From the NCBI GenBank assembly GCA_047601445.1, contig JASGJH010000001.1, forward strand, positions 6,720,001-6,784,000: 64,000 nucleotides of DNA, written 5' to 3'. A program made the position numbers. Positions 15,001-21,000 of this stretch are shown one piece after another (the stretch's first letter is position 1; each line of letters starts with the position of its first letter). Origin of the DNA: Myxococcales bacterium. GTDB lineage: Bacteria > Myxococcota_A > Polyangia > Polyangiales > DASUME01.

Positions 15001-18000
15001 AGCTGGCTTCCCGTGCAGGTGGCGATGGCGCACTACGGAGCGTGCGATGAGCTGGGGCTGTCAGAGCAGCAGCACACGCAGATCGGCGAGGCCGTCTCGC
15101 AGCGCATCATGGGGACCTTCCTGGGGACCCTGTTGCGGTCGGGGCGCGCGATGGGGGCAGCTCCCTCGCCCTGGATCGCCTTGAAGCAGTACGGACGCAT
15201 TTGTGATCGCCTGCTGCTGGGTGGAAGGCATCAAGTGTACGAGCTCGCCGGCAAGGACGCGGTCATCGATACGCGCGGTGTGCCCATGTTCCGATACCAG
15301 TACTTCCGCACGGCGACCGTGGGCATCGCACGCGGCGCAGCGGGCATGTTCGCCAAGACCATCTATGCGCGAGAGCTGGCGCGGACGCCGGACCGTGAGC
15401 AGATTCGAGTGTCGCTGCGCTGGGTTTGAGAAGGCTGCCGCCGCAACAAGGCTGGCTAGAACGACCCGATCAAGAAGGAGCTCAGTGCGACCCGCGAGAG
15501 GTTGGGATCGGTGCCCCACCAATAGGTGAAGTTGGGGCCCGCGCCGAGGCCCCAGCTCTCCGTGAGATGGACGACCAGGGGCATGGCGATCCCAAAGCTG
15601 AGGGCCGTGGACCTGAAATCGGTCTGGGTCGACGAGTAGGAGTCGTAGTCGTAGGGGACGTGATAGTTGTTGTGGACCCAAGCGACGCCGAGCGCAGGCC
15701 ACAGCCAGAGGCCCACGTTGGCTCCGACCCGGGCTTCGTAGATCGCGTGCACGCTGCCACCCATGACGAGGGATTGCCGATTAAATCCGTAGCCCAGCGC
15801 TTCGTCTTGGCGCGACACGAGCAAGCTGGCTCCGATCGCGAATCGCTCGGCGATGAAATAGGCGAAGCCAGGCGTGAGCCCGAGGTTCCAGTGCCGCGAG
15901 TACCCGCTTGGCGAGTCGAGCCCGATGGTGACGCCGCCAGTCAGCATCCTTCGCCCGCGCGAGGTGAGCTTCGTTGTCTTCTTCTGTCGTGACACCTGCT
16001 CGGCGACGTCGTCGGCCCCGAACGATGCGGCGGTGGGCGCTCCACTCCCCGACACGAGCCGCAAGGCGCGGATCGCTGCAAGTTCGAGCTCAGCGGCTCG
16101 ACGCCGCTTTCGAACCGAATGAATCTTGATGGACCCGTAGATCGTGGCAGCCGTCGCGAGGATACCGGCCGCAAGGAGGGTCGCACCGATCCGACGCTCT
16201 CGTGCACCTTCCGAGGGCGAATAGGCGGGGTCATCGGGATAGTCTTTGTAGGTGTTCCCGTCCTCGACCAAGAGCGCGCCGATGGGCAGCAAGAATCGCG
16301 AGAGCAGGAATCCCCAGGCCCACCGAGAGACCGGGCAGCACCAATGAATTCCCGTCCAGCTCACGGGTGAGGGCCTCTTCGCGTTGGTCGAGTTGGCTCG
16401 CAGCGCGCGCGACTTCCACGGGGGAGGGGGCGGAAGGCGGCACGGATACCGCACTCGGAGGAGTGGATTCAAGGGCCGTTGAAGTGGATTCAAGGGCCGT
16501 TGAAGTGGATTCAGCGACCGGTGGAGCGGCTTCAGGGGCCAGAGGAGCCGATTCAGGGGCTGGAGGAGCGTCTTCCTGTGCAAGGGCGGAGCTGGGCAAG
16601 CCGAGCGAGACCACACAGGCGACGGACAGAATCGTACGGAAGAACGCCAAGGAGCACCGTCTAAGGCTGGAGACTCGGCACGCCTATCACAGCCCTGATA
16701 GCAGGCCAAACTCGAGCAGGGGTGACGACGCGCGGCTGTCGAAGGAACGGCCAGGGGTGATGCCCGCGACGAGTCTTGACCCATCGGTACCCACTATGCG
16801 CGGATGCGGCTTCAAAGCGCTTCCTTTGCTGGGGGACCCTACCTTATGAGCCGACTCACTCGTACCGTCGCGGCCGCCGCCGCAACCCTTCTCGCCGCCG
16901 CTAGCAGCGGTGCCTGTGGCGACGGCGACGACCACGCTGCGCAGGGCGAGCTCGATGGTTCGGTTCGTCATGCTGATGCGTCGAATGACGGTGGCGGTCA
17001 CCCAGCGACCGACAATTCGGAGCCCGAAGCGGGCCCACTGTGGCACTTGAACGACGCGCTACGCGGCGGCGACCTGGGGGAGCCGGCACAGAGCAATCTC
17101 TTTTACTCGCCGCTGAGCATCGGCACTGCACTCGGCATGGTCTACGCGGGCGCCGCTGGGGACACCGAGCTGGAGCTGCACACCTTGCTCGCTCCCGGGA
17201 GGACGTTCGACGAGTTCCACGCGGATCTGGGTCAGCTTTTCTCCACGCTCGTCAGCATGGAGCCTGGTGGCAACACACTGCAGATTGCCAATGCGATCTT
17301 TCCTCGGCCAGGCTTCGAGCTCGAGCCGGCCTACCAACAGACGCTGGCGGACCGCTACCGCGCCGCGATCATGGTGACCGACTTTGCGAGCCCCGAGGCC
17401 GCGTCCATGATCAACAAGTGGACGTCGGAGCAGACCGGTGGACACATCCCGAAGCTGTTCGAAGAGGGGCAGCTGGACGCGACGACGGTGTGTGCGCTCG
17501 TCAATGCCATCTACTTCAAGGCCACGTGGAAGACCTCCTTCGACACGGCCAACACCGGCAACCAATCGTTCACTCTCGAGAGTGGTGAGAAGGTGACGGT
17601 GTCCATGATGCACGGCGAGGGGATGCCCGCGCGCATGGGCGAGATTGGCAGAGCGCAGGTGCTCGAACTGCCCTACCAGGGAGATGACCTGCGCTTCGTG
17701 GCCATCCTGCCGGGTTACGGGCAAACGGTCGCGGACCTCGAGAGCGACCTCGCGACGGAGGACGTAAGCACGGCCCTGAAGGCCACGCGCAACGTCCATG
17801 CGAAAGTGGCCATGCCTCGCTTCACCATGCGCAGCCGACTCGACTTGATTCCACCGCTGCGCAAGCTCGGGGTCACGACCCTCTTCGAGCCTGGCGCCAA
17901 TCTCACGCGCATGAGCGCCTCCACGGACATGTTCATCGACGTGGTGGTGCACGAAGCCTGGGTCGCGGTGGACGAAAACGGCACAGAGGCCGCCGCAGCC

Positions 18001-21000
18001 ACGGGCGCCGCCGGGCAAGAGTTCAGCGACCCTAGCATCACGTTGAACAGCCCCTTCCTGTTCTTGATCCGCGATGCCAAGAGTGGAGCCATTCTGTTCG
18101 AAGGTCGCGTGATGGACCCGCGTTAGGCCTCAGGGATCCTCAAACGGCTCCAAACTTTCACCGGAACGCCACAGGCCCACTGCATAAGGGCTCATGGTGC
18201 GCCAGCTCGTCGTATCGCCATCGCGGTTTGCTTCGATCCTTCCTCGCCTTGGACTCCTGTGCGCCTTGCTGCTCGCGGCGACGGGATGTGACGGTGATTC
18301 CAAGATTTCGCCTGGCGCGGCGCCTCCTCCTGCGGATGCCGGTACGTCGGGAACGAAGTTCTATGAGGTCGAGCTCGATGGTCGCATGGCCGTGCTCGAG
18401 CTCGTGCCCAACGAGGGCGTTCTCGCGAAGGACTACCGCGAGTACATGGCGACGTCCGACGGCCTCGAAGAGATGCCGACGCCGGGGAACCGGACTGCGT
18501 GCATGTTCCGTGGAGGTGCGGCCTGGGCCGACGGCGCGGACAGCACGGGGCCACGCTGGAGCGCGCTGAATACCTGCGCTGGTTTCCAGGGATTGATCGC
18601 CCTCGACGGTGAGACCTTCATTCTTGCGCCTGGTGGTGCGGACAACGAGGTCTTGGTCTCTCGCTTGAGTGAAGGGGCCAACGCACCGGTCACCCGCGCC
18701 CGGATCCGCCTGATCGAGCGTGCGCACGGCACCGTGCAAGGGCTGACCGCGGCGCTGGTCACGCCGACCCGATATCTGGAGCTCGTGGTGGTGAGCGATG
18801 CGGCTCGCTTCGAAGCACTCGGTATGGATGCGATGACGGACGCGGTGCAGATCGCGAACTTGACCGATGCCATCTATCGGAACGGGACGATATCGCCTGC
18901 GGTCGCCATCGTCGTCACGGCCAACGTCGTGATTCCCGGTGGTACGGACCCCTGGACCGTCCCGCCCTCGGGGGACGTGGACCCATCGGTGGTGCTGACG
19001 AACTTCTCGGGCTGGGCACGTACCCATCTGCTCAAGGGCGACGAGCATTTCCTGCTCACACAGCGTGAACTGACGGATGCGACGGTCGGGCTCACCTACG
19101 TGAGTGCGGCATGCAAGACCTTCAAGCAAGGCATGGTGCAAGCTACGTTTCCGCAAGCGATCACTGCGACGACGCTCGCGCACGAGCTGGGACACAGCCT
19201 TGGCATGTCGCACGATGGCAGTTCAGCATCCTGCCCCTCGGGTCCCTGGATCATGGCTCCGAACGTGTCGACGCCACCCGCGACGACCTGGTCTGCGTGC
19301 AGCGGGACGGCGCTCGCGAGCTATGTAGCTTCGCTCGGGTCGCCTGGATGCCTCGATAACGTCCCCGTCCCGGACACCACAGCGCCGACCTGTGGTGATG
19401 GCTTCCGTGATCCTGGCGAGCACTGTGACTGCGGCAGCAACGACTGCACCGGCTTCGACCCCTGCTGCAACGGGCTCACCTGCCAGCTCGTCGCGGGCGC
19501 CAGTTGCAGTCAGCTGGATGGTTGCTGCAACAACTGCCAGGTCGCGCCACAAGGCACCACCTGTGAGGCCGCGACGGTGTGCTCGCCGGCAGCGGTCTGT
19601 TCGGGCACCAGCTCGGCCTGTCCGAAACCCGCACCGTTTGCCAACGGCAGCGCCTGCGCCGTCGCTGGATTCACGGATGGCGTTTGCTTCCAGGGCCAGT
19701 GCGAGAGCCTCGGCCAGCAATGTGACGACGTACGTCCTGGCTCCGTTCCTTGCGGGACCGGGTGCGACGCTCTCCCCTGCCGAGATGCGACCTACGGGTG
19801 CGTCGACTGGCTAGTGGAGGCTCAGGACGGCACGCGCTGCGGCAGCGGTCGCCAGTGCGACCAGGGGAGCTGCGTACTCACCTCCACGCTTGCGTTGTGT
19901 GCCCACGACCTGCCCACGAACGCGTGCGGCGGCTGCTCCAGCTTGGCCGTCGCCCCCGGCACCGCCTGCAACACCTGCGGCGTGATGAACTGCGTCTCGC
20001 CGAGCGAAGTGAGGTGCAGTGTCGCCAACGCGAGTGCGTGTCCGAACCCCAACGCCAGCCCCGTGCCAGTGGGCTCTACCAGTCACCTGCTGCTGGTCGC
20101 CTTGGCGTTGCTGGCGATGGGAGGACTGGGCTTGTCCCGCGAGTTCGCCATCACACGCCTGGAAAAACTCCGAGGCGCGCGGGCTCGCGTATACAATCGC
20201 GCCCATGAGTAGTACCCATGCCGACGAGCCGCTGCACCCGAACGTCGCGGCCTACTGGCGCTTGATCGAGGCCTTCAATCGCAACGACCTGGAGACCGTG
20301 GGCGCGGTGCTCGACCCGGACATCGTTTACACCATCCCGGGCCAAAGTGCGGTCGCTGCCCGCACACGTGGAATCACCGCTCACTTGGAAGCGCTGCGAC
20401 GCACCCGTGAGCGAAGCGGCAATACACTCAAACTGGAACCGAAGACCGTGGTGGCGGGCGGTGACCGAGTGTTCGTGTTCGGACGCATTTCCGCCGAGCG
20501 CAACGGTGTGCACTTCGAGAGCGACCACTATGTGGTCTTTCGATTTGCGAACGGTCGCATCGTGGAAGGCATCACACTACCTGTCGATCAGTACGCCTTC
20601 GACGCGTTTTGGGCCTGAGTAGGATTTCGTTGTGCCGCATGGAGTGGCTTTGTACGATCCCCTTCGAGCTTGATGCCGCGTTTGCGCCTTTCTACGAGTG
20701 AGAGAGCACGAGCAGCGGTCACAGCGGAGCGAAAGCTATGTCGTACACGTCTTGCGTTCTTCCGGGGCTAGTCACCATCCGTTGGGGAGAAACCCCCGAC
20801 CCGATCGATGTCCACGCCTATGCCGGTGAGCTCGCGCGAGCGCGCCAACAGCAAGGCAAGCCACCGATTGCGATGTTCATCATGCCGGTCGACAGCGGCG
20901 CGCCCTCGGAGGAATTCCGCAAGGCCCAGGCTGGCATGTTGCCGTCGATCATGGCGAACATCGACTACGCGGTGGCGGTGTTCGAGGGCACCGGCTTTAC

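Follow-up and report, generated by a model that had tools for sequence, protein, structure and literature searches.

An ADAM-like metalloprotease gene adjoining a serpin gene in a Myxococcales bacterium: membership in an old Myxococcota family

The window analysed here is a whole stretch of 64,000 nucleotides from the chromosome of a Myxococcales bacterium, a soil-type bacterium which encodes a complete and apparently active relative of the cell-surface ADAM proteases of animals, adjoining a gene for a serpin. The features of the two genes are as follows.

16846..18126, forward strand: serpin gene g05584, 426 aa from the ATG at 16846 (Pfam Serpin, 1.3e-92; lipobox-like pattern)
17974..18036, forward strand: serpin hinge and reactive-centre loop, ENGTEAAAATG AAGQEF/SDPS (conserpin alignment)
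18127..18193, forward strand: intergenic spacer of 67 nt (sequence)
18194..20212, forward strand: ADAM-like metalloprotease gene g05585, 672 aa and stop (ORF, Pfam, PDB search, model)
18194..18289, forward strand: predicted signal peptide with lipobox LCALLLAATG/C32 (hydropathy at residues 12-31; lipobox-like pattern ending at C32)
18341..18718, forward strand: ADAM-type prodomain, residues ~50-175 (Pep_M12B_propep; model on ADAM17)
18764..19372, forward strand: reprolysin/adamalysin catalytic domain, residues 191-393 (Pfam full model; ADAM8 fold match)
19181..19216, forward strand: zinc site HELGHSLGMSHD, residues 330-341 (sequence)
19253-19255, forward strand: Met-turn, Met354, nearly invariant in the family
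19409..19627, forward strand: disintegrin domain, residues 406-478 (Pfam; 2dw0 alignment)
19628..19894, forward strand: cysteine-rich domain, residues 479-567, structurally ADAM/P-III-like in the model
19895..20080, forward strand: additional stretch with Cys and a stalk rich in Pro and Ser, residues 568-629 (pLDDT below 50)
20081..20137, forward strand: C-terminal hydrophobic helix, residues 630-648 (Kyte-Doolittle windows)
20138..20212, forward strand: basic tail of 24 aa and stop codon (sequence)

The two reading frames, their strand and the 67-nt gap are the same as in the genome-wide survey's note on this DNA, and an alternative in-frame ATG at 16804, upstream of the serpin start, would give a product of 440 aa. 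In the spacer an AAGGG sits 5 nt ahead of the ATG of the ADAM-like gene, and no terminator is predicted between the two genes, the only site of the scan being at 20523; they are probably co-transcribed. At its other end the ADAM-like gene overlaps by its final 8 nt the start (ATG 20205) of a conserved SnoaL-like gene, which is also the point where the homology with a congener (G007) begins. As the survey had stated, the G+C is that of the neighbouring genes, third positions included (0.77 for the ADAM-like gene and 0.81 for the serpin gene); the ADAM-like gene is native to the bacterial chromosome and native in codon composition. A gene for a trypsin-like S1 protease lies 4.4 kb downstream on the opposite strand.

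Judged from its sequence, the ADAM-like protein has the full prodomain-metalloprotease-disintegrin-Cys-rich order; its active site is intact, and a hydrophobic helix lies near the C-terminus. The Pfam matches are Pep_M12B_propep at residues 52-107 (5.9e-6; 27.2 bits, the cut-off being 23.7), Reprolysin at 193-391 (1e-24, full model) and Disintegrin at 406-478 (8.4e-13; 49.3 bits against 35.1), while the Cys-rich region has a weak ADAMTS_CR_2 match alone, and neither ADAM_CR nor an EGF-like module is detected by Pfam. A sequence search of the PDB gives 2dw0 at 1.5e-42 across residues 190-514, together with ADAM22. Thus the survey's Pfam and PDB matches, its domain order from the signal/lipoprotein peptide to the helix, the intact zinc motif at residue 330 and the 42 Cys are all reproduced; the hydrophobic segments are residues 12-31 and 630-648. 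The AlphaFold model (pLDDT 82, confident for residues 50-575) superposes through residues 51-394 on the ADAM17 prodomain-metalloproteinase 9o54_A (Z 27.1, rmsd 3.6 A, 304 aligned) and also on ADAM8 4dd8_C (Z 25.7, rmsd 2.0 A, 192 aligned), and its residues 191-567 align with residues 196-609 of a VAP2 chain and 238-677 of ADAM22; it superposes as well on VAP1, VAP1 and VAP2 being P-III snake-venom metalloproteinases. The prodomain, described earlier as a weak match, is real, since it lies above the Pfam cut-off and superposes on that of ADAM17 (Z 27.1), and it keeps both conserved Cys, C103 and C128. The cysteine switch, which the survey had left to be checked, is lacking: there is no Cys between residues 129 and 306. 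The stretch 568-629 is kept in the closest relatives (NACGGC...PG.ACN.CG; invariant alignment columns). The protein is intact and probably active as a protease after a zymogen stage.

The number of its relatives depends on the search. Eight proteins, as counted in the survey, are found again by a word-indexed search, but this count is far from complete: in an exhaustive HMMER search of 1.84 billion representatives, 2930 proteins match at E<=1e-3, of which 1149 pass E<=1e-10 and 267 pass E<=1e-30, so the picture of three metagenomic relatives followed directly by animal ADAM9/ADAM28 is an artefact of word indexing, and a large and diverse bacterial family exists. Dozens of the 267 are bacterial-looking, a label that rests for library proteins on amino-acid composition and end motifs and not on names; in a FastTree of 174 rows, four eukaryote-like rows fall in bacterial clades and four bacterial-like ones among animal or other eukaryote-like rows. 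Relatives are encoded in 19 of 41 candidate stretches of species-representative bacterial genomes, on MAG contigs of up to 357 kb, 16 of the 19 being labelled as Myxococcota-type lineages, and for five library representatives a MAG encodes the identical protein. The full-length profile at E<=1e-40 is found in 8 of 401 genomes of the phylum, the source genome included (about 2%), and the protein itself as query has no match in 40 related genomes, among them the 9 congeners, which agrees with the survey (0 of 9 with a homologue).

The closest members of the family are 54-57% identical to the query, and the closest eukaryote-like matches include non-animals, among them a dinoflagellate and a euglenid. 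In the core, two bacterial rows share a median identity of 0.357, a bacterial and an animal row 0.31, and a bacterial row and one of the other eukaryote-like rows 0.345; the inner divergence of the bacterial family is about as large as its distance from eukaryotes. All three zinc-site His are present in 42 of 43 bacterial-like members, and HExxHxxGxxH is intact in 38 of the 43 and in the query. Of 39 bacterial-like members 7 have the cysteine-switch position filled, against 42 of 50 eukaryote-like ones. NCBIfam fragilysin matches weakly in 5 of 34 family members. The ADAM-like protein belongs to a rare, old and diverse Myxococcota family of envelope proteins.

As for the C-terminus, a strict rule, which inspection by eye shows to count too few, gives a helix with at least three R/K for 18 of 43 bacterial-like members, 16 of these 18 having a Cys directly ahead of the helix. 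MYXO-CTERM signals have a tripartite architecture and are cleaved by MrtX, as described in PMC11980579. The corresponding model matches 4 of 34 family members and 6 other proteins of the source genome, and in most bacterial relatives the helix and basic tail form a MYXO-CTERM-like sorting signal. The transmembrane helix and basic tail of the survey hold for the query as a hydrophobic helix at 630-648 with a basic tail, although the whole looks more like MYXO-CTERM than like an animal cytoplasmic domain. Its fate is a guess, since the model TIGR03901 does not recognise this C-terminus; no Cys lies within about 15 residues of the helix, and because the signal is degenerate (no adjacent Cys, longer tail) the helix may remain as an inner-membrane anchor. 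Lipobox and helix together predict an unusual, doubly tethered topology.

The trees place the family outside the animal ADAMs. The IQ-TREE tree (LG+C20, 106 rows) gathers 44 of its 46 bacterial rows into a single group (SH-aLRT 94), L009 and L011 falling outside, and places the ADAM-like protein within a starred set of 16 rows that are all bacterial; its animal clade, 27 rows strong (SH-aLRT 96), holds no bacterial row, and the same is seen in the 48-row tree (support 100) and in the 174-row FastTree. Together with a median identity of 36% within the family against 31-35% to eukaryotes, this speaks against a recent uptake from an animal. A tree constrained to join the bacterial rows to the animal clade is only 10.5 log-likelihood units worse, and a sister relation to the animal ADAMs is not rejected (p-AU 0.22), so the data are compatible with more than one donor and with either direction. 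Deep nodes of the trees are weak, and since many rows are flagged for deviant composition, G+C-rich bacterial rows could be drawn together; the sampling consists of the 150 library proteins nearest to the query, with thin coverage of eukaryotic diversity (fungal ADAMs, ADAM10/17).

We therefore consider it fairly probable that the locus carries a member of an old Myxococcota ADAM-like family, an intact and probably active M12B zymogen which derives from an ancient gene exchange, in either direction, between eukaryotes and Myxococcota, and not from a recent animal import. Of the survey's phrase that the gene was taken up from a eukaryote, an old transfer between the domains stands as the best reading, with donor and direction left free. 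The protein would be exported by Sec and lipidated at Cys32, the ADAM-type prodomain would keep it latent in place of a cysteine switch, and removal of the prodomain would activate it; the mature enzyme might then cut extracytoplasmic proteins selected by the disintegrin and Cys-rich domains. In most bacterial relatives a myxosortase may cleave the MYXO-CTERM-type signal and leave the protein on the cell surface, while in the query, with its degenerate signal, the helix may stay in the inner membrane. The ancient exchange would have been followed by patchy spread or loss across the phylum.

It is also possible that serpin and protease form a functional module, in which the prodomain might be removed by a serine protease under the control of the serpin, or the ADAM-like enzyme might inactivate the serpin by cleavage, or both might act jointly on proteases of prey or grazers. 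Besides the shared strand, the short gap free of predicted terminators and the S1 protease gene downstream, both products are predicted lipoproteins (TLLAAASSGAC in the serpin) with similar predicted mature N-termini, C-DGDS and C-GDGDD, and the congeners have no orthologue of either gene, their serpin matches being at most 41% identical. However, a serpin lies in the flanks of 1 of 99 related ADAM-like loci, a set outside which the surroundings of P0003 and P0004, the two closest relatives, fall, and is directly adjacent in none; in that one locus, L015, it lies 2.3 kb upstream and is 30% identical, and an Hsp70-like gene on the opposite strand stands between it and the ADAM-like gene. As serpins are common in the group (14 of 21 genomes, the source genome counted), one chance neighbour is unremarkable. 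From its sequence the serpin appears to be of the ordinary inhibitory type: its hinge equals that of conserpin except for one residue, and the P1 residue is Phe407 (numbered from the ATG at 16804), aligned with what we take to be the P1 Arg of conserpin. Serpins act by trapping serine and cysteine proteases and are not known to trap metzincins. The partner or regulator proposed by the survey does adjoin the gene; with 1 of 99 loci and a canonical serine-protease-inhibitor loop, a functional pairing is doubtful, and a conserved link between serpin and family is absent.

That the exchange ran from a myxobacterial donor, the whole architecture having arisen in Myxococcota and passed to eukaryotes as their ADAMs, is rather unlikely in our view. 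When rooted on catalytic-only bacterial reprolysins, the bacterial rows form a basal and partly unresolved grade and the eukaryote-like rows one group (support 83-85 in the 174- and 106-row trees), but the very long outgroup branches make this rooting unreliable, the outgroups moved in the 48-row tree, and compositional attraction may produce the grade. The bacterial rows are no less deeply diverged than the sampled eukaryotes, and Cys repeats of disintegrin-like type are widespread in Myxococcota (93 of 401 genomes of the phylum), against which stand the roughly 2% of sampled Myxococcota genomes with a full-length member and the spread of eukaryotic holders over animals, a dinoflagellate and a euglenid. 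A recent paper argues for another eukaryotic pathway derived from myxobacteria (PMC13012113).

A fairly direct uptake of an ADAM9/ADAM28-like gene from an animal, by this bacterium or a very close ancestor, yielding a membrane-anchored sheddase, is very improbable. The named database matches are indeed fish, newt and turtle ADAM9/28 (26-30% identity), the domain order is that of animal ADAMs, none of the 9 congeners searched shows the gene and the sister position to animals has the p-AU given above; against this, the bacterial family is large and deep, the animal clade shuts out every bacterial row (SH-aLRT 96-100), the best eukaryote-like score (218 bits) belongs to P0015, a metagenome protein of non-animal type, the codon composition is fully native, ADAM_CR and EGF-like modules go undetected, and the relatives' tails are of a bacterial sorting type. 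Hardly credible, finally, is an adhesin without proteolytic activity that, in the manner of the catalytically dead ADAM22, uses its disintegrin and Cys-rich domains only, for although these hold the best-conserved Cys framework and the bacterial relative P0014 has lost two zinc-binding His, the query retains HExxHxxGxxHD and the Met-turn, and nearly all bacterial-like members keep the three His.

Compared with animal ADAMs and P-III venom metalloproteinases (MEROPS M12B), the protein of the old Myxococcota family shares the domain order, the zinc motif in which Asp follows the third His, the Met-turn and the arrangement of Cys in the disintegrin and Cys-rich domains, and its model superposes on all four parts. 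It differs by a bacterial lipoprotein signal, the lack of a switch Cys and of ADAM_CR or EGF-like matches in Pfam, a disintegrin loop TVCSP where P-III venom enzymes have SECDP (VCS against ECD), a short basic tail free of proline-rich motifs, and its place outside the animal clade; in the 2dw0 search alignment other residues appear to stand in for the acidic ones at what is presumably the third calcium site. The query's true family is that of the metagenome proteins P0003, P0004, P0010 and the MAG loci L003-L020, with which it shares the lipobox, the switch-less prodomain, the catalytic-disintegrin-Cys-rich core and the extra Cys-rich stretch, while most members have a MYXO-CTERM-like Cys motif, helix and Arg cluster where its own tail is degenerate, and 6 of 34 carry TSP1 repeats where it has none. 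Fragilysin (BFT) of Bacteroides fragilis, proposed in PMC9848320 as an adamalysin/ADAM xenologue from inter-domain transfer, is likewise a bacterial protein with an ADAM-like catalytic domain, but by that account has this domain only and evolved an unrelated latency mechanism, whereas the query keeps prodomain, disintegrin and Cys-rich domains. To the MYXO-CTERM surface proteins sorted by the myxosortase MrtX, such as TraA, the C-terminus is likened by the tripartite order of motif, helix and basic tail; its 24-aa tail, however, is longer and less Arg-rich, no Cys is near the helix and TIGR03901 is negative. As to the inhibitory serpins (conserpin, neuroserpin and bacterial serpins), g05584 shares with them a full serpin fold match and the typical hinge ENGTEAAAATG, and is set apart by its lipoprotein signal, an N-terminal Gly/Asp-rich extension of about 55 residues and the Phe at P1.

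The serpin gene and the ADAM-like gene, which the genome-wide survey's note had reported as a pair on one strand with a 67-nt gap, were reproduced here together with all their domain matches.

16846-18126, + strand: serpin gene (g05584), with an alternative ATG upstream at 16804
18194-20212, + strand: ADAM-like ORF of 672 aa (g05585), beginning 67 nt past the serpin end
20205-20618, + strand: SnoaL-like gene, whose ATG overlaps the end of the ADAM-like ORF by 8 nt

As the catalytic part of the ADAM-like protein, Pfam places a Reprolysin domain (PF01421) at residues 193-391 with the whole model matched (1e-24), in which the zinc site, HELGHSLGMSHD at residues 330-341, is of the HExxHxxGxxHD type and the Met-turn residue, Met354, is conserved among relatives. 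The Disintegrin model (PF00200) is matched in full at residues 406-478, scoring 49.3 bits where the cut-off is 35.1, which is the sole match of this model in the genome, and a weak ADAMTS_CR_2 match at residues 501-561 stays below its cut-off (19.7 against 27.3 bits). Among the further Pfam models, neither ADAM_CR (PF08516, at E <= 0.01) nor an EGF-like module was matched by this protein, nor were the TSP1 repeats that are the ADAMTS hallmark after the disintegrin-like module. In the PDB sequence search residues 190-514 gave one unbroken match to catrocollastatin/VAP2 (1.5e-42), with further P-III venom enzymes and ADAM22 ranking after it. Moreover, the protein has 42 cysteines and two hydrophobic segments, namely the N-terminal signal and a C-terminal helix (630-648) with a basic tail of 24 residues behind it; the intact zinc motif, the disintegrin domain, the cysteine count and the helix with its basic tail had all been described before and are reconfirmed. 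The gene sits in one 9.5-Mb contig, and in G+C and third-position G+C (0.77, with 0.81 for the serpin) the pair is like the surrounding genes. The note's observation is confirmed, and by its sequence g05585 encodes a genuine ADAM-like protease of a bacterium, with no part of the gene disrupted.

The prodomain, which had been regarded as a weak match, is in fact over the Pfam cut-off (Pep_M12B_propep, PF01562, residues 52-107, 27.2 bits against 23.7), and it superposes on the ADAM17 zymogen in an AlphaFold2 model built from an alignment of 97 sequences. The mean pLDDT of this model is 82.4, with a confident prediction over residues 50-575 and a poor one over residues 580-672.

Superposition of the predicted model of the ADAM-like protein on known structures (structure; model residues; Z; rmsd; residues aligned)
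ADAM17 prodomain-metalloproteinase, 9o54_A; 51-394; 27.1; 3.6 Å; 304
ADAM8 catalytic domain, 4dd8_C; 190-391; 25.7; 2.0 Å; 192
VAP2 residues 196-609; 191-567; 24.4-24.6; 9.4-9.6 Å; 346-354
ADAM22 residues 238-677; 192-569; 24.5; 10.0 Å; 359

Foldseek with the same model returned VAP2 (2.1e-26) and VAP1 on top and ADAM22 and ADAM10 later, and it aligned zymogen ADAM17 across about 600 columns. From these structure matches all four parts, that is the prodomain, the catalytic, the disintegrin and the Cys-rich domain, are predicted to be ADAM-like in fold.

As for latency, the survey's note had left the cysteine switch unchecked, and it now proves to be absent from the prodomain, since there is no Cys from residue 129 to residue 306. 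Among the relatives the switch position is occupied in 7 of 39 bacterial-like members versus 42 of 50 eukaryote-like members, where both labels are given by amino-acid composition and end motifs. At the N-terminus a lipobox-like pattern after the PROSITE rule, with processing predicted, is found in both proteins of the pair; the one of the ADAM-like protein is LCALLLAATG and ends at C32, and that of the serpin ends at C38. The pattern is also present in 22 of 43 bacterial-like relatives. At the other end, the helix of the relatives is part of a bacterial sorting signal. In the MYXO-CTERM signal a Cys-containing motif is followed by a helix and an Arg-rich end, and myxosortase cuts there for surface display (PMC11980579). 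The corresponding model TIGR03901 is matched by 6 proteins of this genome, to which the ADAM-like protein does not belong (no match at E <= 1), and by 4 of 34 relatives. In MYXO-CTERM proteins an invariant Cys stands by the helix; the closest Cys of the ADAM-like protein is more than 15 residues off, and its tail is longer; its closest relative, the library protein P0003, has a more typical end of helix plus RRRR.

Pfam model PF00079 is matched over its whole length by the serpin (1.3e-92), which also aligns to conserpin and neuroserpin (about 1e-57). The hinge reads ENGTEAAAATG, where conserpin has exactly the same GTEAAAATG, and the reactive loop AAGQEF/SDPS, cut after F, gives Phe as P1 by alignment, which would mark the protein as an inhibitor of serine proteases of the chymotrypsin-like or subtilisin-like kind. 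Inhibitory serpins combine the fold, a small-residue hinge (P15-P9) and an exposed loop, and g05584 is predicted to fit all of these. With AAGGG preceding the ATG of the ADAM-like gene and no terminator-like site predicted between the two genes, co-transcription of the pair is likely.

The note had further taken the serpin for a possible partner or regulator of the ADAM-like protein. The adjacency on the same strand stands in favour of this, but of the 99 related ADAM-like loci just one has a serpin within its flanks, and the link is unproven. In that one locus (L015) the serpin is 30% identical and an opposite-strand Hsp70-like gene lies between it and the ADAM-like gene; the ORF at 15456-16784 (- strand) upstream of the present serpin is unrelated to this Hsp70-like gene. 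A metagenome scan, from which 80 loci were kept, gave a best match of 51% identity but over only 106 residues, with 26-38% for full-length ones, and the contigs of the two closest relatives, the library proteins P0003 and P0004, are not among these 80 loci. Serpins themselves occur in 14 of 21 genomes of the group, the present one counted, where the matches of the other genomes reach at most 41% identity. Since a serpin stands near one in 99 loci, the pairing seems particular to this genome, or is perhaps found in its nearest relatives too.

In the nearest congener genome (G007), homology at 75-80% nucleotide identity is found for a TPP-enzyme gene and the SnoaL-like gene, and its end coincides with the start codon of the SnoaL-like gene, ATG 20205. 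The T2SS-ATPase gene of the other flank is on a separate contig of G007 and synteny is scrambled, with the right-hand boundary alone fixable; from these limits of homology, about 14.6-20.2 kb of the window is without counterpart in G007. This stretch is filled by the serpin gene, the ADAM-like gene and two ORFs without Pfam match, at 15456-16784 (- strand) and 14614-15429 (+ strand), which have a GC3 of 0.76 and native codon bias. No mobile-element signature is seen, as there is no tRNA gene within 32 kb of the locus and there are no convincing flanking repeats at it. Two tandem repeats lie within coding sequence, one of 15 nt at 14189-14263 (4 overlapping 30-nt copies, within the T2SS-ATPase ORF in its 5' part) and the other of 21 nt at 16462-16524 (3 copies, inside the unannotated ORF at 15456-16784). 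The region 4-9 kb downstream of the ADAM-like gene abounds in genes for secreted proteins or for extracellular proteins of eukaryote-like type; on the minus strand lie a trypsin-like S1 protease gene (24632-25813), a VWA-domain gene (25886-27394) and a gene that weakly matches an M66 peptidase (27204-28886). It is conceivable that the S1 protease is a target of the serpin.

How far the ADAM-like protein has relatives depends on the method of search. The eight proteins given in the note were obtained again by a word-indexed search, and with a 40-sequence profile such a search returned only 15, with little taxonomy; HMMER with the protein itself against 1.84 billion cluster representatives gave 2930 matches at E <= 1e-3, of which 267 reach E <= 1e-30. 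Among the best 150 HMMER relatives, 46 have a G+C-rich amino-acid make-up like that of the query and are counted as bacterial-like (42 by the composition rule and 4 by tree position), typically with a lipobox start and an end made up of a Cys motif, a hydrophobic helix and RRRR. Moreover, when one genome for each bacterial species was scanned by pattern, 19 loci encoding relatives came up, on contigs of up to 357 kb; a single-protein scan of the same kind of collection found none, and it was the alignment-based scan that found the 19. By their record titles 16 of the 19 are of Myxococcota type (Myxococcales, Archangiaceae, Polyangiaceae, Myxococcaceae, Microvenator and "Deltaproteobacteria") and the other 3 of Proteobacteria type, and proteins encoded on these MAG contigs are identical to 5 library representatives.

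In domain content 34 bacterial-like members have Reprolysin throughout and Disintegrin in 33, while the propeptide model is matched in 14, ADAMTS_CR_2 in 8, TSP1_ADAMTS in 6 and ADAM_CR in none of them. TSP1 repeats after the Cys-rich domain, in an ADAMTS-like layout, are seen among the library proteins P0004, P0010, P0005 and P0012. One member from a Myxococcota MAG (P0014, locus L019) has lost two zinc-binding histidines (HELGVVLGLPVD) and may, like ADAM22, be a form without protease activity. The family is rare, as the full-length profile at E <= 1e-40 matches 8 of 401 sampled Myxococcota genomes, the present one counted, and a search with the protein itself matches 0 of 9 congeners and 0 of 31 other genomes from the order. 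The Pfam Disintegrin model alone matches 93 of the 401 genomes, mostly because other proteins contain partial Cys repeats in tandem; a Myxococcales MAG protein of 1303 aa (P0179), for example, combines a Kelch match with a tandem array of about 14 partial disintegrin-like Cys repeats and lacks a protease domain.

Trees were built on the metalloprotease, disintegrin and Cys-rich core, where support is SH-aLRT from short searches only, many rows are deviant in composition and the sample is biased to query-like sequences. FastTree with 174 rows placed the eukaryote-like rows in one group of 108 (support 85), with an animal clade of 67 rows inside it (support 100), and the bacterial rows in several clades forming an unresolved basal grade. 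In the IQ-TREE analysis (LG+C20, 106 rows) 44 of 46 bacterial rows came together (SH-aLRT 94), and the query was grouped with P0003, P0004 and P0011 (support 98) inside a starred set of 16 rows, all bacterial. In the same tree an animal clade of 27 rows (SH-aLRT 96) holds zero bacterial rows and has ADAMTS7/9 as its sister (support 90), and the non-animal eukaryote-like rows are placed around the group of animals and ADAMTS. A tree of 48 rows again gave an animal clade (12 rows, SH-aLRT 100) with zero bacterial rows, with weak deep nodes and outgroups that shift. The median core identity is 0.357 among bacterial members, 0.41 among animal members, 0.31 between bacterial and animal members, and 0.345 between bacterial and other eukaryote-like members.

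Taken together, the trees and the core identities show an old bacterial family in Myxococcota. A sister position of the bacterial rows to the animals survives beside this, for holding them together with the animal clade was not rejected by the AU test on 48 rows (delta-logL 10.47, p-AU 0.22). A bolder reading, which we think improbable, is that Myxococcota rather than animals first assembled the order of prodomain, metalloprotease, disintegrin and Cys-rich domains, with TSP1 added in some lines, that the eukaryotic ADAMs came from a myxobacterial gene, and that the present protein would be one of the survivors of that original family, acting in the envelope as a protease on a lipid anchor, with a serpin expressed alongside it. 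The note had explained the gene as taken up from a eukaryote; a recent origin of this kind, from an animal, is not supported, since the trees and identities contradict a recent animal import. The query is not placed inside the animal ADAM clade, as the two animal clades with SH-aLRT 96 and 100 are free of bacterial rows.

Within this old bacterial family, the TSP1 repeats of some members and those of ADAMTS are probably independent additions, because ADAMTS7/9 group with the animal ADAMs, not with the TSP1-bearing bacterial relatives, in the 106-row tree. On the eukaryotic side, the named non-animal relatives are Polarella glacialis, a dinoflagellate, and Ploeotia vitrea, known from a euglenid transcriptome, and within eukaryotes the family reaches beyond opisthokonts. 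The library proteins P0098, P0078 and others are non-animal eukaryote-like relatives with the metalloprotease, disintegrin and Cys-rich core, and several marine metagenome relatives have C-terminal WW-domain-like sequences.

For the working of the protein we propose a zymogen that would be exported by Sec and lipid-modified, whose prodomain would shield the active site as in ADAM17 but without a Cys-zinc bond, and would then be taken off by a protease. The mature enzyme would cut envelope or extracellular proteins picked by the disintegrin and Cys-rich domains; candidate substrates are surface proteins of the cell itself or of prey and grazers. The C-terminal helix could be either a degenerate sorting signal or a permanent inner-membrane tether.

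ADAMs are regarded as eukaryotic inventions and are central in shedding, Notch signalling and venom action. The origin of the ADAM genes is put in the opisthokont ancestor in a 2009 survey (PMC2770060), and a genome comparison lists a 'disintegrin' Pfam family as exclusive to Minicystis rosea among the compared Sorangiineae (PMC8436480). In the literature on bacterial ADAMs, myxobacterial reprolysin or disintegrin, and ADAM evolution, with subscription journals thinly covered, no description was found of a bacterial family with the full four-domain order, a lipoprotein signal, a bacterial sorting tail and no cysteine switch, the nearest items being the Minicystis rosea genome paper and fragilysin; the present protein belongs to a previously undescribed Myxococcota family. 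Such a family can serve as a tractable bacterial model of ADAM latency and of substrate targeting by disintegrin and Cys-rich domains, and it allows gene flow between eukaryotes and myxobacteria to be tested on an example. It also supplies candidates for proteases on the surface of bacteria that are predators and live socially. In comparison with animal ADAMs and P-III enzymes, the protein carries TVCSP at the disintegrin loop where the P-III enzymes have SECDP. Fragilysin, whose catalytic domain is proposed to be an ADAM xenologue with a latency mechanism that evolved separately (PMC9848320), differs in that it has only this catalytic domain in common with the bacterial ADAM-like family.
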